This document shows, piece by piece, positions 1,330-50,742 of a stretch of 64,000 nt of DNA. The notes beneath the pieces were generated by a model, which saw nothing but the letters and a program-made list of their open reading frames with translations, was not told the origin of the DNA and ran no database searches. The stretch comes from a virus (taxonomy: Duplodnaviria; Caudoviricetes). Location of the stretch: IMG/VR virus record IMGVR_UViG_2630968832_000009, positions 3,088 to 67,087 of that record; one strand, 5' to 3'. A program made the translations under genes and the position numbers. Within the stretch, counting starts at the first letter, position 1. Every line of letters starts with the position of its first letter.

Positions 1330-1782
1330 TTAATCCTCCTCGTTTTCTTCTTCCTGTCCAATGGTTTTGCGGATATATGCTGCAGCCATTTCGTACTCAT
1401 TCCATATCTTTCCCGGTACGAGATGTCTGTAAAGAGCTTCTGTTTCAAACAACATCTCAGCAATAAGCTGCCACTCCACGATATAGTTTGGGGATTCTCT
1501 GTCCAACGTGCCATCCGCTTTACGCTCAATAGTTGCCGGTGAAATCTCCTGAACAAAGTCGTCCAGATTTTCGTAGCTATAATAATGAAGGACATCTTCA
1601 ATTTCATCTTCCGAGTAATCGTTAATGTTGATGAATGCGTGGGCAACTGCAAACATATCAAGAACCCCACACACCTGCCACAGCTCAAAAACATTTCCTT
1701 TGAATTCGTCAAGATTACGCACATATTGTGCACAGTCATCATCAGTAAGAATCCATTTTGAAGATCTTATTTGTAAACTCAT
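1330..1782 (-). CDS. Hypothetical acidic early protein
   Basis: 150 aa, AAGGAG RBS. Confidence 0.7.
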   Translation of the reverse strand: MSLQIRSSKWILTDDDCAQYVRNLDEFKGNVFELWQVCGVLDMFAVAHAFININDYSEDEIEDVLHYYSYENLDDFVQEISPATIERKADGTLDRESPNYIVEWQLIAEMLFETEALYRHLVPGKIWNEYEMAAAYIRKTIGQEEENEED

Positions 1783-1824
1783 ATTGAATTTCTCCTTGTA
1801 TTAGATAACTGATAGTTGCTGCCA

Positions 1825-1852
1825 TTTCTGCCCTCGTGACCTCTGGGGCGGG
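1825..1852 (-). repeat. Intergenic GC-rich hairpin motif X, copy 1
   Basis: CCCGCCCCAGAGGTCACGAGGGCAGAAA, near-identical to 2339-2366. Confidence 0.8.
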
Positions 1853-1863
1853 CTGTTGGTTAT

Positions 1864-2094
1864 TTAGCGGGTGGGGTTGCGCTCCATAAATTTTCTTACG
1901 AATTCAAAGCACTTTTCCAAATTAGGGCTGCTATATATTGAATCCAGCCCGCCCGGAACTAATTCAAATTCCACTGAATAATTCCAATGAAAAATATCTC
2001 TAGCATCTATTACTTGCAAAAATTCTCCGCCATTAGTTTCCCATGCTTTAATCGTGCGTCTGCTCATATACGGATGATTTCTAATCACGTTCAT
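1864..2094 (-). CDS. Small hypothetical protein
   Basis: 76 aa, directly behind motif Y. Confidence 0.65.
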   Translation of the reverse strand: MNVIRNHPYMSRRTIKAWETNGGEFLQVIDARDIFHWNYSVEFELVPGGLDSIYSSPNLEKCFEFVRKFMERNPTR

Positions 2095-4899: not shown

Positions 4900-5433
4900 T
4901 TAAAAATCAATCGTTCCGATTCGTTCTGGTTTATAAACCTTCTCCCAGTGCCAACCATCATCGTACAAATTAGGTACTTTTGTCCGTTTAAAGTCTCGAA
5001 TGACTGTACTCATTCGTGCTTTACTCAATTCATTGAACACAAACTCAGCAGCGCAACGGATGTTGGATTCACTACAATGCTGTCCCCAAAAGCTATCTAT
5101 AAGCCAACCTTTTTTGGTCTCTTCCAAAGCTGCGTCCATTGAGTATTTCCCGTTTTTAATTGGTGTCTTGATATAGTAAAAAGGAAAGAACGGGTTATCA
5201 TCTACCTGGTAGTAGTAGTACACATCATTTAATACAAAACTAATGTACGAAGTATGTGTGACCTTGATCGGTTCAGTGTCCTTACAATTCCGGTCACTGA
5301 TAAAAGCCTGCCTTGTAGGCTTTACCCTGCCGCCGTGCTCTTTCACCAAACTTGCCAGTGCTGACATCATACGCGCCATGTTATAGTCGCAAGAACGAAG
5401 ATACAGCCGTTGATTTTCTTTTGAAACGATCAT
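4900..5433 (-). CDS. Hypothetical protein
   Basis: ATG 5433 with GGAGG RBS. Confidence 0.7.
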   Translation of the reverse strand: MIVSKENQRLYLRSCDYNMARMMSALASLVKEHGGRVKPTRQAFISDRNCKDTEPIKVTHTSYISFVLNDVYYYYQVDDNPFFPFYYIKTPIKNGKYSMDAALEETKKGWLIDSFWGQHCSESNIRCAAEFVFNELSKARMSTVIRDFKRTKVPNLYDDGWHWEKVYKPERIGTIDF

Positions 5434-5515
5434 ATTTGACCCTCCACTAAATATTTTGTTGATACTCAAACCTGTGATAGGGCTTTTATGCAGATGCCCT
5501 TCAGAACTGCTTTTT

Positions 5516-5737
5516 CTATACTCTTACAAACTCAGATAGATAAAAAATGTCGTCTCCGAGCCTGAAGAATATCTTCCCGGTGTGTCTTTCACGCTTCACA
5601 GGCACTGTCCAAAATCCACGTAAAAAGCCATTTTTTCGATAAGTTACCGTTACTTCCGACAATAGATGCTCACGATTCGTTTTGCAGCCTACGATTGTAA
5701 AAACACGTGTTCCCAGATTTAAAACCATATATATCAA
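5516..5737 (-). CDS. Small hypothetical protein
   Basis: 73 aa, AAGGAG RBS. Confidence 0.55.
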   Translation of the reverse strand: MIYMVLNLGTRVFTIVGCKTNREHLLSEVTVTYRKNGFLRGFWTVPVKRERHTGKIFFRLGDDIFYLSEFVRV

Positions 5738-6925: not shown

Positions 6926-7156
6926 TCATTTCAAAAGCAAAATCACAAAAATTATAGCCAAACCAATCATTATAGAGGAAACCACTCTGAATAATGAGAC
7001 AACAGGCGATCCCAATTGCTTTTCCTCGTATTTTTTTGATGACTTTACTTCGTGTTTTCTCATCGGAGCAGATTGATTGATCCTATCAACGCTCTGCTTA
7101 TAGTGTACATAACCGTCAAGACCTGAGCCATAAAACCCAAAATCATTTTTGGACAT
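6926..7156 (-). CDS. Small membrane-anchored protein with N-terminal GxGLDGYVHYKQ motif
   Basis: 76 aa, C-terminal TM helix; N-terminus matches 47130-47300. Confidence 0.75.
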   Translation of the reverse strand: MSKNDFGFYGSGLDGYVHYKQSVDRINQSAPMRKHEVKSSKKYEEKQLGSPVVSLFRVVSSIMIGLAIIFVILLLK

Positions 7157-8502: not shown

Positions 8503-8522
8503 ATCATTCACCTCTCGCCACA

Positions 8523-8551
8523 AGTGTAACGCAAACAGCGTTACAAGTCAA
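8523..8551 (-). promoter_or_regulatory. SigA promoter and operator of relB-parE
   Basis: TTGACT-17-TACACT with dyad TGTAACGC-N5-GCGTTACA across the spacer. Confidence 0.75.
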
Positions 8552-8553
8552 GT

Positions 8554-8632
8554 ATCATCCAAAATATTTTTCACGCGCTGCGCAAAAAAACGCCCCGCAA
8601 AGCAGAGCGTTCTTCGTTATATTCAATTAATT
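8554..8632. repeat. Cassette repeat B (~80 bp)
   Basis: ATCATCCAAAATATTTTTCA..CAAAAAAACGCCCCGCAAAGCAGAGCGTTCTTCGTTATATTCAATT, shared with 9380-9461. Confidence 0.9.
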
Positions 8633-8756
8633 TCACTGGCACTAAACTCTGTAACTGGTTCAACCGTTACCTTCGTTTTTTTGCCTCCAACTCGCCCTTT
8701 TCATAGGCAATAGCTTCTTCTAGACCTAATGCAACTTTATCGAAAACGGTACTCAT
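8623..8756 (-). pseudogene. Truncated HigA-type (HTH-XRE) antitoxin N-terminus
   Basis: MSTVFDKVALGLEEAIAYEKGELEAK/(frameshift)TKVTVEPVTEFSASEI, then cut by repeat B before the HTH. Confidence 0.7.
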
Positions 8757-8768
8757 TAAGAAACCTCT

Positions 8769-9038
8769 CTACTTTTCATAATGCGTCCACATTCTGATGA
8801 TTTTTACTATCTTTTCATCTTCAAAAACTTGGTACACTATCCTATGCTGTCTGTTAATTCGTCTTGAGTACATTCCAAACAAATCACCAACCAATTTTTC
8901 ATATGACGGTGGGGTCTGATAAGGATTATTTCTGATTACCTCAATCAAAGCTTTTGCTTTGGTTGCAAGATTCGCTCTTTGAAGCTTTTGAATATCCTTT
9001 ACTGCATCTTTGGAATATACAATTTTATAACTCACCAA
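8769..9038 (-). CDS. yoeB: Txe/YoeB toxin
   Basis: NPYQTPPSYEKLVGDLFGMYSRRINRQHRIVY...MWTHY. Confidence 0.93.
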   Translation of the reverse strand: MVSYKIVYSKDAVKDIQKLQRANLATKAKALIEVIRNNPYQTPPSYEKLVGDLFGMYSRRINRQHRIVYQVFEDEKIVKIIRMWTHYEK

Positions 9039-15195: not shown

Positions 15196-15214
15196 AGCAA
15201 AAAATCAAACAGTC

Positions 15215-15482
15215 AAATGTGTTGATAAGGAAAAGTAGCGAGAGGAAAGCTTACAGAGAGCCGTGGGTTGATGGGACACGGCAACGGAACTTCCGCGAAA
15301 ATCCCCTTAGAACAGTCCGGGTGAAGAGCGCGCCCTACGCTTGCGTAAGCCGGAACGTGTAACATACGTTATCATGTTTATCATTGACGGATGATAATTG
15401 AGCGGCCGTTTTCGGACGGCAAATAGAGTGGTACCGCAGAGTTGAAACCTTTGTCTCTAATTTTAGAGATGAAGGTTTTTTT
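15215..15482 (+). ncRNA. T-box riboswitch, probable Ile (AUC) specifier
   Basis: AGTA/GAA loop E, AGAGA and GGTTGATGGGA distal motifs, GAAAATC specifier loop, AGAGTGGTACCGC T-box, terminator hairpin ending in a T run. Confidence 0.92.
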
Positions 15483-42420: not shown

Positions 42421-43743
42421 GTGGCAGACGAACTGGGTATAAAGCTTAAAGCAAGTCTTGGCGATTATAGAGAACTAATTAAGGGGATCTCAAATCTCGA
42501 AAAGGAAATAAAACCTATAAAAATCAAATTGGATTTGGGAAATGCCAGAGAACTTGTTGACATATTAAAAAAAGCAACCAATCTAATGCAAGGAACCGGT
42601 TCCAGTTCCGCACATGCTTCTGTTGTCCAAACTATCAACTCAAACGACATTTCCCAGTCAATAAATCTACTAACGAGATATTCTGTTCTGTTGGAGAAGA
42701 TCAAATCGGCAAAATATGATGGCACTGGATTTGATTTTGGAAAATTAAATTTATCTGAACTGGAAAAATACGCCTCTTTACTGAAATCCGCACTCTCAAA
42801 CGGCGAAATTTCTAGAGATGAATTAAATAAATTCAAAATTGACCTTATATCTGCCGAGGGTGTAATCAGACAATTTGACGTAGAACTGGCCAACATGCGT
42901 GGCGACGAGAAATTTGCAAAAGATATTCAAAATGCAACAGTGCAGCTTCAGAACTTGCAGAATCAGATGCTTTCTTATTTGAAGAACACGCCCAATCTGT
43001 CGGCTTCTACGCGCAATGCTATTCAAAGCAGATATGATAACATCACACAAATAATAAACAGCGGGACAGCAACTGATAAAAACGTTTTGGACGCACGTGA
43101 CTTTTTCAGTGCAATACAGCGTGATGCGAAAATAGCTGGTGAAGAGGTTGAATCCTTCGGTGGTAAAATTCGCAGACTGTTTAGAGAGCATTTCAATACA
43201 GCAGTCGCGATGGCGGGCGTACATCTTCTTCAAACTGCTATGCGTGAATTATGGCAGAATGTCCAAGATGTAGATGCTGCGATGACCGAATTGAAAAAGG
43301 TCACTGATCTTTCTGACTCTAGCGCTTTGGAGTTCATGGATAAAGCTGCCGTCAAAGCAAAAGAGCTTGGCGCAAGCATGAGCGGATATATCAATTCTGT
43401 TGCAGACTGGAGCCGCCTCGGATATAAACTTGACGATGCGGAAATGCTTGCCGATGCGAGTCAGCTTTATTTGAATGTAGGCGATGATGTGGATGACATA
43501 AATGAATCCACATCTACACTTATTAGTACGGTTCGCGCCTTTAAGCTGGAAGCAAGCGATGCGGCGGGCGTGGTTGACAAACTGAATGAAGTTTCTAACA
43601 ATTACGCCACAAGTGCAGGAGATATTGGTGCGGCGCTTGCACGTTCCAGTGCGGCGTTGTTTGCAGGTGGAAACAGTCTTGAAGAAAGTATCGCGCTGAT
43701 TACAGCGGCACAAAGTACCATTCAAGACGCCGAAAAAGTGGGT
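42421..43743 (+). CDS. Tape measure protein, exon 1
   Basis: TP901-type core: DAAMTELKKVT, VDKLNEVSN, SLEESIALITA; ends EKVG at GGT. Confidence 0.9.
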
Positions 43744-45042
43744 GGACATATGCGCCCCACTGCTTAGTAATAAGCAGATGAAAAAATAGCTATATCGGTT
43801 AAACCCCAGGGATGGGCAAGACCGAGGTAAGACTTTATGAACGGGTTATTTGTGGCGGCAGTTAGGAGTTGTCGTCGCAGAAAGGGTATACTAAATGCCA
43901 GCGAAAGGGCAAAGAAATGGATATACAATAAATTGTGAGTGGTGTGGAAAAGAGATTTATAAAACCAAAACTCAATATAACAGAAACAAACATCATTTTT
44001 GTTCAAACAGTTGCCAAATGAAATGGAACCATTCACAAGTATATGAAATGCGCCCCTGTGAACTTTGTGGGATAAAATTTGAAGTAAGAAAGACTTCCAC
44101 ACAAAAATTATGTTCTGTAGGATGTCAGAAGAAATGGCAAAAGACGAGAACGGGATTTTTGAATCCTAAATTTGAGGGTGGAGCCAAGCTGTGCGCGTGG
44201 TGCGGAAAGAAGTACATTGTAGGAAAATATAAGATGAATAATGAAAGCAACCGCTTTTGCTGTATAGGATGTAAAAGAGCGTGGTTTGCTAATGTATGGA
44301 GTCAACAGGATAGTTGGAAAGAAGAATCAAGAAAAAGAGCGGCCACATTGTTAAAGAACAATAAAGTTATAACGAATACATCCATTCAAATAATGGTAAA
44401 TCAAATACTTGACAGTATGAAAATTTCATATGAAAATGAAAAAGCATTTGATTTCTATTCCGTTGACAATTATTTACTCGAAAGCAACTTGATTATAGAA
44501 GTAATGGGCGATTATTGGCACTGTTCCCCATTAAAGTTTTTTAAAGTTGAATCTCCTATACACAGAAGAAGTGTTAGAAGAGATAAAGCCAAACGTACTT
44601 TTATACTCAATAAATATGGCATAAAAATATTAAACCTGTGGGAATACGACATTCTAAATCGCACAGAAGTTTGTCGATATTTAATTGAAAAGTACATAAC
44701 TGCGCATGGCAAGATAGAAAACTATAATTCTTTCAATTACACTTTATATGAATGTAATAACCTTATATTAAACAGGGATATTATGTATCCTTATTTTGAA
44801 GAAAATAGGCTACAGTTAGTTTCCTAACGACTGAACTGGAGCTCGTTCATAAAGAAACCGTAGAGACTGTAATATTTTTCGCGGTAACGCGAAAGGTTTC
44901 GCTATTCCCCCTAAAGTTGGGGTGAAGATACAGTCCGATCTCACGATATAATCCTGATTTTTGAAACGTGAGAGCATGGCCGAAAGACCATGCCGCCGCT
45001 TCCACAGCGGTCAGTAGCCATGGCGGCGAAAGTAACAGAATG
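43744..45042 (+). mobile_element. Group I intron 1 (IA-like) with homing endonuclease
   Basis: P3 AATAGC/GCTATT, P4 TCGGT/ACCGA, P7 GACTGT (44865-44870)/ACAGTC (44930-44935), P7.1 hairpin; U| 5' site and G| 3' site; splicing gives EKVG|TALKTISM. Confidence 0.9.
43895..44827 (+). CDS. Intron-encoded homing endonuclease (Zn-finger repeats + Vsr/DUF559 EDxHD-like nuclease)
   Basis: Three CxxC...CxxxC repeats; VDNY...IIEVMGDYWH...RDKAK...LWEYDI. Confidence 0.85.
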   Translation: MPAKGQRNGYTINCEWCGKEIYKTKTQYNRNKHHFCSNSCQMKWNHSQVYEMRPCELCGIKFEVRKTSTQKLCSVGCQKKWQKTRTGFLNPKFEGGAKLCAWCGKKYIVGKYKMNNESNRFCCIGCKRAWFANVWSQQDSWKEESRKRAATLLKNNKVITNTSIQIMVNQILDSMKISYENEKAFDFYSVDNYLLESNLIIEVMGDYWHCSPLKFFKVESPIHRRSVRRDKAKRTFILNKYGIKILNLWEYDILNRTEVCRYLIEKYITAHGKIENYNSFNYTLYECNNLILNRDIMYPYFEENRLQLVS

Positions 45043-45627
45043 ACAGCCCTAAAAACAATTTCCATGTACCTGCGTTCCACCAAGACAGAGTTGGAAGCAG
45101 CCGGTGAATCGACAGAAGGCATGGCCGATTCAGTATCGAAGTTGCGTGAAGAACTGCTTGCTCTGACGCATGGGAAAGTTGACATTCAACTGGATGAGGA
45201 CAGTTATAAATCCACATATCAAATCCTGAAGGAAATGGCCGGCGCATGGCAGGATATGACCGACATGGAGCGTGCTGCTGCCACGGAACTCATGGGTGGT
45301 AAGCGAAACAGCAACGTAATAAGTGCCCTGATTTCAGACTTCAGCATCGCAGAAAACTCTTTGCAAACGGCGCTGAACAGCACGGGGAGCGCTGCAAAAG
45401 AAAACGAGAAATACCTTGATAGCATCGCAGGTAAACTCTCGCAGTTCGAAGCACAATTCGAATCTCTTTCTACATCTGTAGTAGATAGCGGTCTTCCAAA
45501 GTTCTTTATTGAATTAGGAACCAACGTACTATCTGCAACAGAAGGGATTATTAACTTCATTGACGTATTTCCCGCGTTAATGGGGTTACTTAGTGGTGGG
45601 CTATCTCTCACTGGGCAAAAGGCCGGT
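45043..45627 (+). CDS. Tape measure protein, exon 2
   Basis: TALKTISMYLR...YKSTYQILKE...GSAAKENEKYLDSI. Confidence 0.9.
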
Positions 45628-46029
45628 AAAAGTAATATGCCCTCTTACGCCAGTTGTGATTTAATTGCGGCGTAGGATGCAACCTTTTGTTTCGTATAGG
45701 ACTCAAATTGCTGGGATGGGCTAAAGATCATCTGCTACAATAGCGCAGAAATTACGCTATGAACGAGCCGAAAGGCGGAAACAAGTGATGATATTCGTAT
45801 ATGCTGAGATAAAAGCATACATATAAAACGTATGTGCTAAGTACGATAGATAAAATGTCCTATCAGCAGCCACATATCCAAAGGCCGCAAGTTTCCGGAG
45901 TGTGTGGCCGGAGCGGAAACTGGATTTATGGTTCAACGACTGGAAGAGTCGGGTGTCACAACGCCATGAAGTACAGTCTGAACATCCGGAGAAAAACCGG
46001 AGTGGTCATAAAAAGTTTAACAAAAAAGC

Positions 46030-46072
46030 ACAAAACCACCCACGATAAATGTGAAGTGTGGGTGGTCTTTTT
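46030..46072. terminator. Hairpin terminating the antisense cassette
   Basis: AAAACCACCCAC...GTGGGTGGTCTTTT flanked by A and T runs. Confidence 0.6.
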
Positions 46073-46126
46073 GCTATTGCATTGGCAAACATTTTTCTTT
46101 TACTTTTTCAGCATTCTTGGATGTTC

Positions 46127-46924
46127 TTAGCTTTTGGGGGACCACAAACCACATTCTTGCAGTTTGTCCCAGTTTGCAGATAATACCAATACAGAATTAT
46201 TGAAATCAACGCGCCTACGTTTTTTGCAGATGAGATCGCTATCCAGCATTTGATTTAACGCTTGGATTATAATTGCCTCAGAAACCTCATTCCGCTGTGA
46301 AACATATCTTACAGTATTCATGAACGTTACAATGACTTCCGGATGTTTTGCTGCCCAGTCCAAACGCTCAATAATCATTGGATAATATACAGAAGGCTTA
46401 ATATCCTCTGTCGGAACAGAATAATGCTCTAGTGCTGCATCACATAACTGTTTTGAGCAGCATCCCTTAACACCATATTGGATAACCTTTTTATCACATT
46501 TGTTGCGAAGGAATTTGACGACGCTTTGAAAGTGGCCATCCCCAGTGAACAAAACAAAGTATTTGACATCTGGATACTCCATTGCCTTGCGGTAAATATA
46601 ATCGAGCATCACAAAATCCGACATGTCCTTTTTGTTTTTTCCCGCAAAATTGCCAGTCTCGATAATAGAATCACTTACTGTACGAATGTGCCCAGGTTCA
46701 TCTTTAAGTACAGGTATGCCCGTAAAATCGGCAAAAAAGAATGCTTCTTCTACTTGAAATCGAGTGCAAATGCTATCATACCATTCCTTTATATTGGGCT
46801 TGAGCCCAAACAAATTTTTGTAGCCAAAAAACCAATGTTCGTAATCGACAAAAACTAAAGCTCTTTCTTTTTGTGGTTTTCTAAATCGATTCAGTATACG
46901 CTCTCCAATATTAGAAATATCCAT
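46127..46924 (-). CDS. NYN-domain (LabA/DUF88, PIN-like) protein with C-terminal winged helix
   Basis: VFVDYEH, KKDMSDFVMLD, LFTGDGHF, LCDAA acidic motifs; GGGGAG RBS. Confidence 0.9.
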   Translation of the reverse strand: MDISNIGERILNRFRKPQKERALVFVDYEHWFFGYKNLFGLKPNIKEWYDSICTRFQVEEAFFFADFTGIPVLKDEPGHIRTVSDSIIETGNFAGKNKKDMSDFVMLDYIYRKAMEYPDVKYFVLFTGDGHFQSVVKFLRNKCDKKVIQYGVKGCCSKQLCDAALEHYSVPTEDIKPSVYYPMIIERLDWAAKHPEVIVTFMNTVRYVSQRNEVSEAIIIQALNQMLDSDLICKKRRRVDFNNSVLVLSANWDKLQECGLWSPKS

Positions 46925-47129
46925 ATCTTCTCCCCTTTTTTTACATATTCAAGCCTATTTAGTATAGCACTGATAAAGAAGCTACTCAATGGCTTTGTAT
47001 CCAGCCGGATTATTTCAGGCAAAGAGACAAGTTGATCTGTCATTTGGAAGATTCTAACCAATACGCAACCGTACACTCGGCTCATCACTCGCCATCTCTA
47101 GTGGTATTATTCGGGTCTAAACTCCTTGT

Positions 47130-47300
47130 TCAATTATATATTTCATCATCTTCTGGATACTCAGCTTCAATAAAGCTCTCCTCGCTTAAAAACTCGTCTT
47201 CGCTGAGGCCGCCATTTTCTTTAAAGATGTCATCAAACGTCTGCTTGTAATGGACATACCCATCTAATCCATCGCCAAAGTACCCATAGTCTTTTGACAT
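47130..47300 (-). CDS. 56-aa acidic micro-protein with GxGLDGYVHYKQ motif
   Basis: MSKDYGYFGDGLDGYVHYKQTFDDIFKENGGLSEDEFLSEESFIEAEYPEDDEIYN; AGGGGG RBS. Confidence 0.7.
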   Translation of the reverse strand: MSKDYGYFGDGLDGYVHYKQTFDDIFKENGGLSEDEFLSEESFIEAEYPEDDEIYN

Positions 47301-47445
47301 AACACACATCCCCCTACTTGCGCTTATTCCAACTCATTTCAATCGCTCAACAAGCGCTACTATTATTGGTGCTTTTATAATACCACAAAATCAACAAAAT
47401 GACCACATTATAGAGATCACACACTATCTATAGTGAACATTATTG

Positions 47446-50400
47446 ATATTTACGCTGTTTGATTTTGATGTAGAACAGGCCAAAAATGGTATTTTAGACT
47501 TCGGAGAATCGATTAGCTTTCTTGGCAAATCTCTAAGTTCTATAAAAGATGATTTCTCTGGGAACGGTTTCTCTGGATTTGTAAATGGGCTAAAAACACT
47601 ATTTGTATCTCAAAGTAAAAGGGATGCGTCACTCCATCTTGAAACAGACATAAAAGCTTTATCTGAATATGTTGATGCGGTACAAAACGGCACTAATGCT
47701 GGCAAGGCGTTTGACGACACTATGAAAAACGCCTCAACAACTGCGATAAACTATGCCAGATCAACCGATGCACCCAAAGTAAGCGTTCAAGAATTTACAG
47801 CAATGCAAAAGGCAGCAACGCTAAGCACTATCGGTTTGAAAGCAGCTACTGTTGCACTGAACATGGCTATTTCAATGGGAATTGGGGTTGCCATCAATTT
47901 TGCAATCAGCGCCCTGGATGATTACATCCATCGCCATGAACGTCTTATTGAAGCTGCAGAAAAAGAGGCCAGCGATTACAATTCGCTTAGCAGTGAATTG
48001 AAGTCTTTGGATGACCAAATGGAAAGCAACTCCGATCGGATTAAGGAATTGCAAAGTTTGGGAACATTGACGTTTGTTGAACAGGAAGAGCTTGATAATT
48101 TACAGGAAGCAAATGAAAAACTCGAAACGCAGCTTAACTTAAAAAATGCATTAGCCAATATTGAATATGGTGAAGCGCGCGACGCTGCAATTAAAGTAAT
48201 TGATGATAAAAGCGAAGTTGTTCAAGAATTTGATTCTAACGGGCTTTATATTGGTAGTTACGATGCTACGCGTTCTGAAAAAATCAAAGCTAATGTCTCT
48301 GATTTGGACCATATTGATTCCGAGATTCAAAGGTATCTTTCCGAATACGTAGAAGCTTTGAAAGCCAATTTTATTGGCGACTTTGAGTTCTCAACCAAAG
48401 AAGATTATGAAGAACAAATCAAAGAGTTGCGCGAGGGCAGGCAGCTTGTTTTAGACGAAACTCTTAAGCTACAAGCAGCACTGCAGGAACAAGCGGATGT
48501 TCTTATCGGAGATGACGATGCAAGTCGTAAATACCGCGATGAAGTAAAACAGAGCGGTATCATATTGGATGATTATCTGGGGAATAGCGCGACACAGAAA
48601 ACAAATGACTTCAACTCTGTCTTCGACAACAACCAATTTGCTAAAGAGAAAGAGCAACTAGAGGATCTCGCCAAACAGGGAAAGCTTACTGCGGATGTAT
48701 TCGATAATACTGATGCATATGATTCGTTAGTAGAGGCACTTGAAGTTCTTGGCATCTCAATCGAAGATATCGCCAATCAGTTCAATGCTTTGGCCGAATC
48801 TGAAGCCGGAGCTCAGGAATCATTTGATCCTGAAAAATTCGAAAGTCTCAATTCAGAGTTTGGTGACCAGATTTCAAATGTTGACGCATTGTATAACGGC
48901 TATCAATCGCTTACAACGGCGATAGATGAATACAATACGTACGGTTATATGACGGCAGAAACACTGAGTTCTCTTGCCAATTCTGGAATGATTCAGTATT
49001 TGGAGGCTACGGCAACTGGTCTCTCAATTAATACTGATGCGTTGCTGCAAAATGCTGAAGCTGCCAAGGTATCAGCAATTAACGCTCTTCAAAATTCTGT
49101 TGCTCAACAATTGGTAGCGCTTGCGGCTGGTGACGTAGCCATTGCTGCTCCGGGTGCCGGTGACGCTATCGTGGCAGCTGGCGAAATGGCCGCTGCATCT
49201 GCAGCTGGATTTAAAACGGCTTCTGCGGCTGCGGCCGAAACAACAATTTTTCTTGAAGGCGTTCGAGACGCACAAGCCGGAAATGCTGTTGACCCTGACG
49301 CTTATCGTGATCGTGCAGATCAATTGATCGCCAACGCTCAGGCTGTTGCCGACTCTATCGCCAAAATAGATATTGCGTCTGCTGGATATCAAAAAGCTAT
49401 GGCGGGCAATGCCAAATCTACCGGCTCGGCTAAAAGCGCAGCGGAGGAATATGTAGAGTCGCTAAAAAAAGAGAAAGAGGCTTTACAGGATGTAAAGAAT
49501 GAGCTGGACGATCAAAAAGATGCCTATGATTCTGTTATCCGCGCTGTCCAGAAAGCACTAGACAAGGAAATCGAAGCTCTTGAAAAGCAAAAAGATGCTT
49601 TATCGGATCCTGATATTGAAGGTTCGTACGGCAACCGTATCAACCTCATCCAGATGGAGATTGATGCGCTCAATAATTTAAGGGACGCTAAAGAGCGCGA
49701 AATAGCCGTAGAAAAAGCCAAGGCCGAACTTGAACGGTTGAAGGACCAGAAAACGCTACGTGTATACATGGAAGGCGAAGGCTTTGTTTGGCGCACTGAT
49801 GAATCTGCCATTCGTGATGCACAGGAAGCCCTTGATAAGGCCGAACTGGATAAACAAATTTCTGATCTTGAGGATGCCAAAGAAAAGCTTGAAGATATGC
49901 TTGAACAAGAGGAAGAAGCTCTTGACAAAAACATTGAAAAGCTTCAAGAATATAAAGATAAATGGGGCGAAATCGCCGATGCTTATCAAGACGAGCAAGA
50001 TAGGCTTATGGCCGCTCAGGTGCTTGGGCAAAACTGGGAAGTTGAAATTCTGAATGGTCGAATTGAGACGCTCACTTCTTTTCGTGACAAATATATTTCA
50101 ATCATGGCTGAAATCGCAGCAAAGGTTGAAGAAATCGAAGCCTTGGAGCGCCGTATTAAAGAGGCGCAAAACAGCATCGGCTCTTCTAGTGGAAACTCTG
50201 GCGGTGGCGGCAGTGGGGCTACAAATGCGTCTTTACCACGGTATCGCGTCGTAAACACTAGGTATGGAACAGTTTCCCGTTCCGGATTTACCACACAATC
50301 TGCGGCCCAAGAATATATTAAAACTCTGGGCGCATCACAAGGATTTTTCCGCATTGAGAAATATGCCAACGGCACTATGTTCTCCCCTACGACGCTTGCT

Positions 50401-50742
50401 TATGTGGATGATGGAATTGGCAGCAACGCCGGCAGTGAGCTGATCGTGCGAGCGCCTAAGCATGGAAGGCTTACATCTCTTGAATTAGGTTCAGGTGTTA
50501 TCCCCGCGCAGGCAACAAAAAATCTAATCGCGATGGCAAAGTCTCCTCAAGCAATGCTGCAAGAACAGTTCAAGAATTTGTTTAACAATCAGATGTTGGC
50601 AGCTAATACAGTTGGTACAAACAAAATCTTCGAATTCAAATTTGGAGATATTATCATGCATGGCGTGAATGATACAACGTCGTTCGCTAAAATACTCACT
50701 CGCGAGTTCCCCGCTATCTTGAAGCAGGAGCTCGGGCGGTGA
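47446..50742 (+). CDS. Tape measure protein, exon 3
   Basis: Long coiled coil ending YANGT...GSELIV...GSGVIPA; no RBS before 47443. Confidence 0.88.
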   Translation: MFTLFDFDVEQAKNGILDFGESISFLGKSLSSIKDDFSGNGFSGFVNGLKTLFVSQSKRDASLHLETDIKALSEYVDAVQNGTNAGKAFDDTMKNASTTAINYARSTDAPKVSVQEFTAMQKAATLSTIGLKAATVALNMAISMGIGVAINFAISALDDYIHRHERLIEAAEKEASDYNSLSSELKSLDDQMESNSDRIKELQSLGTLTFVEQEELDNLQEANEKLETQLNLKNALANIEYGEARDAAIKVIDDKSEVVQEFDSNGLYIGSYDATRSEKIKANVSDLDHIDSEIQRYLSEYVEALKANFIGDFEFSTKEDYEEQIKELREGRQLVLDETLKLQAALQEQADVLIGDDDASRKYRDEVKQSGIILDDYLGNSATQKTNDFNSVFDNNQFAKEKEQLEDLAKQGKLTADVFDNTDAYDSLVEALEVLGISIEDIANQFNALAESEAGAQESFDPEKFESLNSEFGDQISNVDALYNGYQSLTTAIDEYNTYGYMTAETLSSLANSGMIQYLEATATGLSINTDALLQNAEAAKVSAINALQNSVAQQLVALAAGDVAIAAPGAGDAIVAAGEMAAASAAGFKTASAAAAETTIFLEGVRDAQAGNAVDPDAYRDRADQLIANAQAVADSIAKIDIASAGYQKAMAGNAKSTGSAKSAAEEYVESLKKEKEALQDVKNELDDQKDAYDSVIRAVQKALDKEIEALEKQKDALSDPDIEGSYGNRINLIQMEIDALNNLRDAKEREIAVEKAKAELERLKDQKTLRVYMEGEGFVWRTDESAIRDAQEALDKAELDKQISDLEDAKEKLEDMLEQEEEALDKNIEKLQEYKDKWGEIADAYQDEQDRLMAAQVLGQNWEVEILNGRIETLTSFRDKYISIMAEIAAKVEEIEALERRIKEAQNSIGSSSGNSGGGGSGATNASLPRYRVVNTRYGTVSRSGFTTQSAAQEYIKTLGASQGFFRIEKYANGTMFSPTTLAYVDDGIGSNAGSELIVRAPKHGRLTSLELGSGVIPAQATKNLIAMAKSPQAMLQEQFKNLFNNQMLAANTVGTNKIFEFKFGDIIMHGVNDTTSFAKILTREFPAILKQELGR

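Follow-up and report, generated by a model that had tools for sequence, protein, structure and literature searches.

A probable group I intron with a helix-closed slot for accessory genes in a prophage tape-measure gene

The stretch of viral DNA analysed here is a window of 64,000 nucleotides (nt) from a member of the Caudoviricetes (IMG/VR record IMGVR_UViG_2630968832_000009, positions 3,088-67,087; all coordinates below are those of the window), which from about 29 kb onwards holds a prophage with terminase, portal, capsid and tail genes. Within the tape-measure gene of this prophage lies an element, 45628-47445, which we take with a probability of about 80% to be a group I intron with a permissive, helix-closed slot for accessory genes. 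Its catalytic core occupies the first 374 nt, its 3' end lies beyond a 1.39-kb insert with a gene for an NYN-domain protein on the minus strand, and in closely related introns this insert is replaced by other genes.

Predicted intron anatomy and splice sites

The tape-measure gene is spread over three open reading frames (ORFs), 42421-43767, 44968-45675 and 47443-50742, which we regard as pieces of one gene since intron-less homologues have them joined. The first piece matches Pfam PhageMin_Tail, along profile positions 3-139 of 201 only. Exons 1 and 2 are contiguous and in one frame in three GenBank phage records (tblastn), and among 42 IMG/VR viral tape-measure loci found with exon 2, the exon 1/2 site is uninterrupted in 39 and the site of the second interruption in 40, the two interrupted ones being the contigs L008 and L029. 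The exons accordingly run over about 42421-43743, about 45043-45627 and 47446-50742, with a predicted spliced product of about 1,734 aa. The first interruption (intron 1, about 43744-45042) contains a plus-strand, zinc-finger/HNH-like ORF of 310 aa (43895-44827) that matches phrog_1271 (E 6e-12) and, weakly, DUF559, and an exon of only about 585 nt separates it from the second, 45628-47445, hereafter intron 2.

With a pattern taken from the stretch conserved between the window and L029, the element was recovered in 16 further loci, namely the viral contigs L008, L029 and L051 and 13 metagenome contigs, at the same tape-measure site in all of them. The 17 loci fall into three sequence types, type A comprising the window and nine others, type B six loci and type C a single one. 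Searched alone, 45600-46030 gives a full-length match to Rfam RF00028 Intron_gpI (model 1-253) of 14.6 bits (E 0.28), which is weak when taken by itself; the type B core of L029 and the type C core of L051 match the same model positions with 29.4 bits (E 8.2e-6) and 21.5 bits (E 0.0022), respectively.

The P3-P9 core with its P3/P7 pseudoknot topology is present in the window, and compensatory changes are found in it across the three types. In a script check of one representative of each type, P1, P10, P2, P3, P4 and P5 were 100% paired and colinear in A, B and C, and the same was true of the four helices of the P5 extension (P5a-d), P7, P8, P9 and the closing helix described below, even though the helix letters vary between types everywhere except in P4 and the GCC-GAAA-GGC hairpin. 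P3, for example, reads GACTC/GAGTC in type A, TCCC/GGGA in type B and TACCCA/TGGGTA in type C, P7 reads GACTG/CAGTC, GACTA/TAGTC and GACTGT/ACAGTC, and P8 reads GGTGT/ACGCC, CGGCG/CGCCG and TGGT/ACCA, while the P2 hairpin becomes CTTATATTC/GAATATAGG in type B and CTTATGCAG/CTGCATAGG in type C. Variation of this kind also occurs within type B, where L059 has P8 CGGCA/TGCCG and P9 TCTATG/CATAGA. P7 (CGACTG/CAGTC(T)G), which in each of the three types contains conserved G-C pairs and a bulge of a single base, is the candidate site of the guanosine-binding pocket. It should be mentioned that the covariation is given as a comparison of helices, not as a statistic, over a core of about 387 columns, and that MAFFT misaligned P6-P8 of type B as well as several helices of A versus C, which were realigned by eye with guidance from Rfam. 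Judged from sequence comparison, the complete group I core appears to be more than a chance arrangement, the comparative support for a group I intron seems good, and intron 2 would presumably be self-splicing.

The 5' splice site lies after U45627, and exon GGT 45625-27 forms the 5' strand of P1, which is GGT/GCC with a U45627.G45639 wobble. P1 and P10 change along with the exons. P1 is GGT/GCC in type A, GGGT/GCCC in type B and AGT/GCT in type C, with the U.G wobble kept throughout, and P10, which has 5 bp in type A (AATAT/ATATT), extends to 8 and 7 bp in types B and C, respectively. At the other end omega-G 47445 closes the intron of the window, and every intron of the set terminates in G. 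The predicted ligated junction, GCCGGT^ATATTT (the caret marks the joint), restores a single tape-measure frame, the reading frame is kept over the junction in all six introns examined, and the predicted spliced proteins align without gaps to intron-less homologues: QKAG^IFTLF of the window with KNFGIFSQ in L032, KDWG^VLTPFTS of type B with QGSILTPFTLSG in L022, and KTKGS^ILNLFNMFGT of type C with GSILNLFNLFGT in L009. Unspliced, the exon 2 frame continues for 16 codons to a stop at 45675, and exon 3 is without a Shine-Dalgarno sequence, its sole in-frame start-like codon being TTG 47443, 3 nt ahead of the splice site. A 5' splice site after U45645, with the hairpin 45644-51/45669-76 and its U.G wobble as P1, was also considered. 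It was rejected because the sequence identity between types begins directly after exon GGT and P10 fits 45627 alone, and furthermore because the intron-less homologues leave no space for six additional residues; this hairpin is not P1 and is instead P2.

P9 is directly followed by the 5' strand of a P9.1-like closing helix (intron position 375 in type A and 373 in type C), whose 3' strand is found 46 nt ahead of omega-G in both types and which in the window is a perfect 8-bp pairing around the 1.39-kb insert. The strands of this helix read AAGGTTAT/ATAACCTT in type C, three positions being altered on both sides, and the tail of type C has a hairpin CTAATTA/TAATTAG at the same place. Type B differs in that a short 3' tail, GCACATTC, pairs with GAATGTGC in a loop downstream of P9, without any variation among the four loci of this type for which the ends were seen. 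The covariation of the closing helix between A and C, together with the alternative pairing in type B, therefore indicates that the long-range pairing is real and functionally conserved.

An earlier note on this DNA had proposed a group I intron with these splice sites and a complete core, with its insert in a loop that a long-range pairing closes. All the elements that it listed, i.e. the closing helix, the intron ends, the NYN gene, a small ORF, a -10-like site and a terminator, are indeed present at its coordinates (Table 1). P1 and P10, omega-G and the gapless protein junctions agree with the intron and its splice sites, and the 8-bp pairing, covarying in type C, agrees with the closed loop. 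The completeness of the core holds insofar as its helices are colinear and paired in three types, but not by the measure of Rfam, whose scores remain below the gathering cut-off.

Table 1. Positions of the features of intron 2, its insert and the flanking exons in the window
Feature	Position	Strand	Basis or remark
Tape-measure exon 2	45043..45627	+	Start approximate, from protein alignment (tblastn to intron-less homologues)
Group I intron 2 (putative), type A, 1,818 nt, last base omega-G 47445	45628..47445	+	Rfam sub-threshold match, helix table, junctions
Internal guide sequence	45634..45641	+	AATAT 45634-38 pairs exon 3 start (P10); GCC 45639-41 pairs exon GGT (P1)
P2 hairpin CTTACGCC/GGCGTAGG	45644..45676	+	Covaries among types
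Catalytic core	45700..45980	+	Helix table; Rfam alignment puts P3-P9 at same positions
P3	45700-04/45946-50	+	
P4	45709-14/45863-68	+	
P5	45718-21/45857-60	+	
P5 extension, including GCC-GAAA-GGC hairpin 45767-76	45727-45846	+	
P6	45870-80/45921-31	+	
P6a	45891-97/45914-20	+	
P7	45937-42/45974-80	+	
P8	45952-56/45961-65	+	
P9 hairpin TCCGG/CCGGA	45985..46001	+	Rfam alignment and helix table
Closing helix 5' strand (P9.1-like), GTGGTCAT	46002..46009	+	Pairs 47399-47406
Variable portion of insert, other DNA here in L008 and L054	46013..47142		blastn, window versus L008 and L008 versus L054
Terminator hairpin	46036..46075	-	-24.9 kcal/mol, z -4.6, U-rich run after
NYN + winged-helix-like gene, 265 aa	46127..46924	-	Pfam, homologues, AlphaFold (AF2), Foldseek
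Promoter-like site TTGAGT-17-TATACT, TG-extended, upstream of NYN gene	46961..46989	-	Consensus match only
Small acidic ORF, 59 aa (56 aa from ATG 47300)	47130..47309	-	Conserved in all type A inserts reaching it
Promoter-like site TGGTCA-17-TATTAT, TG-extended	47377..47405	-	Consensus match only
Closing helix 3' strand, ATGACCAC	47399..47406	+	Pairs 46002-46009
3' tail: hairpin TATAGA/TCTATA (47409-14/47427-32), then GTGAACATTATTG with terminal omega-G	47409..47445	+	
Tape-measure exon 3	47446..50742	+	ORF and junction alignment

The insert and its replacement in related introns

When the Pfam scan was applied to the two minus-strand genes of the insert, one more minus-strand ORF and five plus-strand ORFs, the NYN domain was the sole match. 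Homing-endonuclease families (LAGLIDADG, GIY-YIG, HNH, His-Cys, PD-(D/E)XK, EDxHD) were not found on either strand of 46010-47398, and NCBIfam and PHROGs likewise gave no homing-endonuclease match among the ORFs of the insert, as the earlier note had maintained of its loop. Transposase families are absent both from the window insert and from 18 cargo proteins of other loci.

The NYN gene has GGGGAG 6-7 nt ahead of its ATG, and its product scores 27.6 bits against Pfam NYN (PF01936; cut-off 24.2 bits, E 4.8e-6). At E<=1e-3 the protein has 276 homologues, mostly of 250-280 aa and with 40-45% identity, and all of the 16 homologues that were aligned share the residues D27, D100, D103, D108 and D129. 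In the AF2 model, with a mean pLDDT of 89, the N-terminal half matches VPA0982 (2qip, E 7.3e-11, TM(target) 0.81) and the NYN domain of MARF1 by Foldseek, and residues 177-250 form three helices and a beta-hairpin in a winged-helix-like pattern; one homologue is annotated as a TrmB helix-turn-helix protein. NYN domains are RNases. The protein of the insert would probably be an accessory factor that cleaves RNA to the benefit of phage or lysogen. In viral contigs the NYN homologues are free-standing in nine of nine cases, with no tape-measure gene or intron motif within 6 kb, and the neighbours confirmed by Pfam are, in L068 and L069, large serine recombinases and an amidase, in L067 a PemK toxin together with an SNF2 helicase, and in L072 an XRE repressor accompanied by an IrrE-like peptidase. 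Since all nine are free-standing, the family looks like an ordinary accessory gene of the lysogeny or early regions of prophages which here appears to have landed in the intron slot.

The small acidic ORF, upstream of the NYN gene on the minus strand, has only 12 close homologues, and its second ATG (47300), with a GGGGGA box 9-10 nt upstream, offers the better Shine-Dalgarno spacing. The small intron-borne protein (47130-47300, minus strand) shares G-x-G-L-D-G-Y-V-H-Y-K-Q with a 76-aa ORF at 6926-7156 (minus strand) in the early region of the same prophage, which ends in a hydrophobic C-terminal helix where the small ORF has an acidic tail. The promoter-like site at 47377..47405 includes the extended -10-like TGGTATTAT at 47377-47385 and shares part of its -35 box with the 3' strand of the closing helix. 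The earlier note had further raised the possibility that antisense transcription silences tail synthesis. Since promoter-like site and terminator are both placed inside the insert, a minus-strand RNA would be complementary to the looped-out intron RNA only, and its lack of overlap with exons or core argues against such silencing.

The clearest view of how the insert varies comes from L008, which is the same prophage in another genome, with 99.86% identity over 5,761 nt upstream (blastn). Its intron 2 core is 99.1% identical to that of the window, and the likeness extends up to 46012, whereafter 2.9 kb of other DNA stands in place of 1.13 kb in the window, and the two sequences rejoin at 47143, just past the stop of the small ORF. 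In this type A insert lie genes for a STAS-like DUF4325 protein (E 1e-10), for a membrane protein of 321 aa and, on the minus strand, for a 358-aa protein with CoiA_N and Zn_ribbon_Top1 domains, and the 3.9-kb type A insert of L054 encodes a HATPase_c-like protein (phrog_3364), a DUF4325 protein, a 188-aa membrane protein and a CoiA-like gene. Among the type B inserts, L029 and L060 have minus-strand genes of 172 and 114 aa, L058 a plus-strand gene of 197 aa and a minus-strand gene of 109 aa, L065 an aspartyl-protease-like gene and the 109-aa gene, and L059 two aspartyl-protease-like genes and a zinc-ribbon gene, while the type C insert of L051 has at least five genes on both strands. The window gene set is also found in L053 and at the start of L056. 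Ten of the 17 loci have complete introns with both ends present, and these carry eight distinct gene sets; in every type a minus-strand gene begins beside the 3' segment of the intron. The occurrence of different gene sets in near-identical introns therefore supports the notion of the loop as a cargo bay. The comparison of homologous loci for other cargo in the same loop, which the earlier note had called for, thus speaks for its view of the intron as a cargo vehicle, with the 2.9-kb and 3.9-kb inserts in a 99%-identical backbone and different cargo in types B and C as well.

Type B and C inserts repeatedly contain genes for proteins with a retropepsin-like aspartyl-protease domain, matched by Pfam Asp_protease_2 / gag-asp_proteas with E values as low as 5e-10. 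These genes are located at 8521-8931 (-) in L051, 6161-6619 (-) and 6837-7265 (-) in L059 and 1510-1923 (+) in L065. In the closest GenBank homologue (MT837120.1, 5100-7667) the tape-measure ORF ends near the intron-2 site and is followed by minus-strand genes, among them those of a 307-aa protein and of a 74-aa zinc-ribbon protein, with a C-terminus like that of cargo proteins of L059 and L051. We make no claim for this record as a further intron case, as 5040-5560 gives no group I match and the record stops before any exon 3.

The window intron with its NYN insert is present at about 99% identity on contigs of four sequencing runs from four studies, three of them labelled bovine gut, mouse gut and pig gut and the fourth without label; one 48-kb contig covers all 2,501 nt, with 20 differences. 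The DNA contigs of these four runs contain no joints indicative of intron-less or cargo-less forms, which is no proof of absence. The genome from which the window comes has one copy each of intron 2 and the NYN gene, a blastn search of 45500-47600 against GenBank phages gave no match, a DNA search of the genomes of 60 relatives gave as sole match 32 nt in one of them (G058), and a pattern scan of genome contigs returned 0 matches.

As for intron 1, window positions 43837-44803, the region of its endonuclease ORF, are cleanly missing from L008, a prophage otherwise 99.9% identical, and such presence and absence of the ORF is a pattern typical of a mobile endonuclease gene within an intron. In L008, intron 1 matches the Rfam group I model over the full length of the model but below threshold, with 12.9 bits. 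Related tape-measure genes are broken at other positions by 1.2-3.5 kb in L035, L042, L043, L044 and L046, within exon 2 in L044 and L046 and within exon 1 in L035, L042, L043 and L044, and intron 1 is partly similar to L042, L043, L044 and L035. The tape-measure genes of these viral contigs thus look like intron hot spots. Elsewhere in the window, a T-box leader at 15213-15461 (+), with 128 bits, is the sole RNA family above its Rfam gathering score.

Proposed mechanism and alternative explanations

A number of observations weigh against the interpretation of 45628-47445 as an intron with an accessory-gene slot. No group I intron is matched at gathering score in the whole window, or at E<=10 when 43500-48000 is searched, and the Intron_gpI gathering cut-off of 50 bits is missed by the window intron and both its homologues. 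The helices were chosen by eye using the Rfam alignments before being checked by script, and the covariation rests on few lineages because the independent sequence types number three only. The sequencing runs found to contain the stretch include no RNA run. The terminator hairpin also folds on the plus strand (-19.4 kcal/mol, with CTTTTTG after it; 46028-46082) and may there halt part of the late tape-measure transcripts inside the intron, an insert of 1.4-3.9 kb may slow the folding of the ribozyme, the number of promoter-like sites, 5, does not exceed that of shuffled sequences (6.0 +- 2.4), and neither the NYN protein nor the small ORF is matched in PADLOC, PHROG or NCBIfam. The sub-threshold Rfam scores, the plus-strand terminator-like hairpin and the 16 codons by which the exon 2 frame extends to the stop at 45675 would also suit a dead relic of an intron, in which case two separate tape-measure proteins would be made and 45628-47445 would be an intergenic hot spot for morons. 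However, P1, P10, the closing helix and the other helices stay paired through compensatory changes in three types, which is unexpected in a dead intron, exon 3 lacks a ribosome-binding site and offers as a start no more than a TTG 3 nt ahead of the splice site, the frame is kept across the junction in six of six introns, and metagenomes from four studies contain the element with about 99% identity. A dead relic is in our view highly improbable.

The nature of the cargo allows for two further explanations. The NYN + winged-helix protein, and in the L008 and L054 variants of type A the CoiA-like/zinc-ribbon protein, could be an atypical antisense homing endonuclease of the intron. In each type A variant, indeed, a single nuclease-like gene comes next after the conserved small ORF on the minus strand, NYN in the window and the 358-aa CoiA_N + Zn_ribbon_Top1 protein in L008 and L054, and both proteins pair a nuclease-type domain with a likely nucleic-acid-binding domain; moreover, unrelated endonuclease families in homologous phage introns and antisense homing-endonuclease genes in nuclear group I introns are both known from published studies (PMC2504315 and PMC3679873, respectively). 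Such a role is nevertheless rendered improbable by the closest solved structures, which are the NYN domains of MARF1 and VPA0982, by the location of all nine viral NYN homologues outside introns and tape-measure genes, by the type B and C cargo, which is aspartyl-protease-like, membrane and zinc-ribbon proteins with no nuclease domain by Pfam, and by the up to five or more genes carried per insert. Alternatively, the cargo might be an anti-phage or toxin-antitoxin-like module expressed in the lysogen, in which the small acidic protein neutralises or regulates the NYN nuclease. This idea draws on the promoter-like boxes and terminator of the unit, antisense to the late operon, on the position of a small acidic ORF upstream of a PIN-like nuclease, and on NYN homologues in prophage accessory regions, once adjoining a PemK/MazF toxin gene. 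An anti-phage role had also been suggested in the earlier note, but PADLOC matches neither the NYN protein nor the small ORF, and among 10 cargo proteins from several loci the best hit in PADLOC-DB 2.0 (Csx23, E 5.7e-4, 18 bits) is not convincing. Furthermore, the small ORF and the NYN gene are some 205 nt apart, with a separate promoter-like site in between, and since the small ORF is retained where NYN is swapped for other genes it is not a dedicated partner of NYN. We consider a defence or toxin-antitoxin function rather unlikely; it concerns the role of the cargo only and would be compatible with an intron that carries an accessory-gene slot.

If 45628-47445 is such an intron, late transcription would pass through it and the core would fold from the first 374 nt, upon which the closing helix and the 47-nt 3' tail would return the distant 3' splice site to the core and dock it there, and splicing would rejoin the tape-measure frame. 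The 1.39-kb loop would then be a permissive slot for accessory genes. Its minus-strand unit, consisting of the small acidic protein, which belongs to the intron backbone, and the NYN nuclease, with promoter-like boxes, ribosome-binding sites and a terminator of its own, would be transcribed separately and independently of the late operon, and the minus-strand RNA would end at the terminator, 27 nt short of the ribozyme core. Cassettes may be swapped by homologous recombination between the conserved intron arms, this being the simplest account of 99%-identical arms around differing cassettes. Cargo could in addition spread by co-conversion when intron 1, with its HNH-like endonuclease, homes. 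The P9.1-like loop of this family of introns might even be a bay reserved for exchangeable accessory genes within an essential virion gene of gut phages, from which homing and co-conversion, given its place in an intron and about 585 nt from a second, endonuclease-encoding one, transfer the cargo to rivals that lack the intron or have another load; such a role as a gene-drive vehicle is possible, if doubtful.

Should that be the case, the genes driven in this way would serve defence, counter-defence or host control, and splicing would keep the intron phenotypically silent. A helix-closed slot with changing non-endonuclease gene sets would represent a novel means by which phages keep and exchange accessory genes within an essential gene, where deletion would be costly and insertion hidden by splicing. 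The cargo so far includes an NYN nuclease, a HATPase and STAS-like pair, and aspartyl-protease-like, membrane and zinc-ribbon proteins, and the system should lend itself to tests of cargo riding on homing, of the tolerance of ribozymes to loop size in vivo, and of the roles of the cargo gene families. There is likewise a consequence for annotation, as tape-measure genes of gut phages may be miscalled as two or three genes with "hypothetical" genes between them.

Comparison with known systems

In textbooks, phage group I introns are to our knowledge carriers of homing endonucleases only. The group I intron of phage T4 nrdD (sunY) has its ORF looped out downstream of P9 and its 3' splice site far from the core, but the ORF is a single gene for a homing endonuclease on the sense strand. 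The cargo NYN protein has the fold and acidic active-site residues of NYN/LabA-like proteins (PF01936; 2qip; MARF1 NYN 5yaa/6fdl), from which it differs in being fused to a C-terminal winged-helix-like domain and in being a phage accessory gene. A literature search that covered main texts retrieved no description of a phage group I intron with variable non-endonuclease cargo.

Closest in setting are the introns TMP-IVS1, IVS2 and IVS3 of Bacillus cereus-group prophages (Tourasse & Kolsto 2008, PMC2504315), which are likewise group I introns in tape-measure genes, several per gene, with homologous introns fitted to their sites via P1 and the internal guide sequence. Most of them have no complete endonuclease gene, and endonuclease genes have been swapped between homologous introns (PMC2504315). 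As they are described in the accessible text of that study, these introns are either ORF-less or contain a GIY-YIG or HNH endonuclease, and no multi-gene antisense inserts of non-endonuclease type figure in it, so that it is by description that they are set apart from intron 2 (PMC2504315). The IStrons of Firmicutes, in which a group I intron is fused to an insertion sequence (IS) element (Tourasse et al. 2014, PMC4227781), resemble the present case in that a group I ribozyme renders a large foreign insertion harmless to the host gene. However, their passenger is a transposase-encoding IS that gives mobility (PMC4227781), whereas no transposase family was found among the cargo proteins scanned here, and the insert, instead of being attached as an IS, is enclosed by a helix of the ribozyme.

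The giant ND5-717 group I intron of hexacoral mitochondria likewise has numerous genes other than endonuclease genes in one of its peripheral segments and is nonetheless removed; its P8 contains the greater part of the mitochondrial genome (Chi et al. 2019, PMC6545197). There the genes sit in P8 and not in a P9.1-like loop, and they are the organelle's own essential genes, fixed rather than swappable, in a mitochondrial host (PMC6545197). The nuclear group I intron S956-2 of Didymium iridis (Mob DNA 2013, PMC3679873) in turn shares the placement of a protein gene opposite the ribozyme strand and within a peripheral helix, but there the gene is that of a homing endonuclease and the host gene is ribosomal DNA of a eukaryote. 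None of the systems compared is thus a phage intron with a helix-closed slot for changing, non-endonuclease and largely antisense gene sets.

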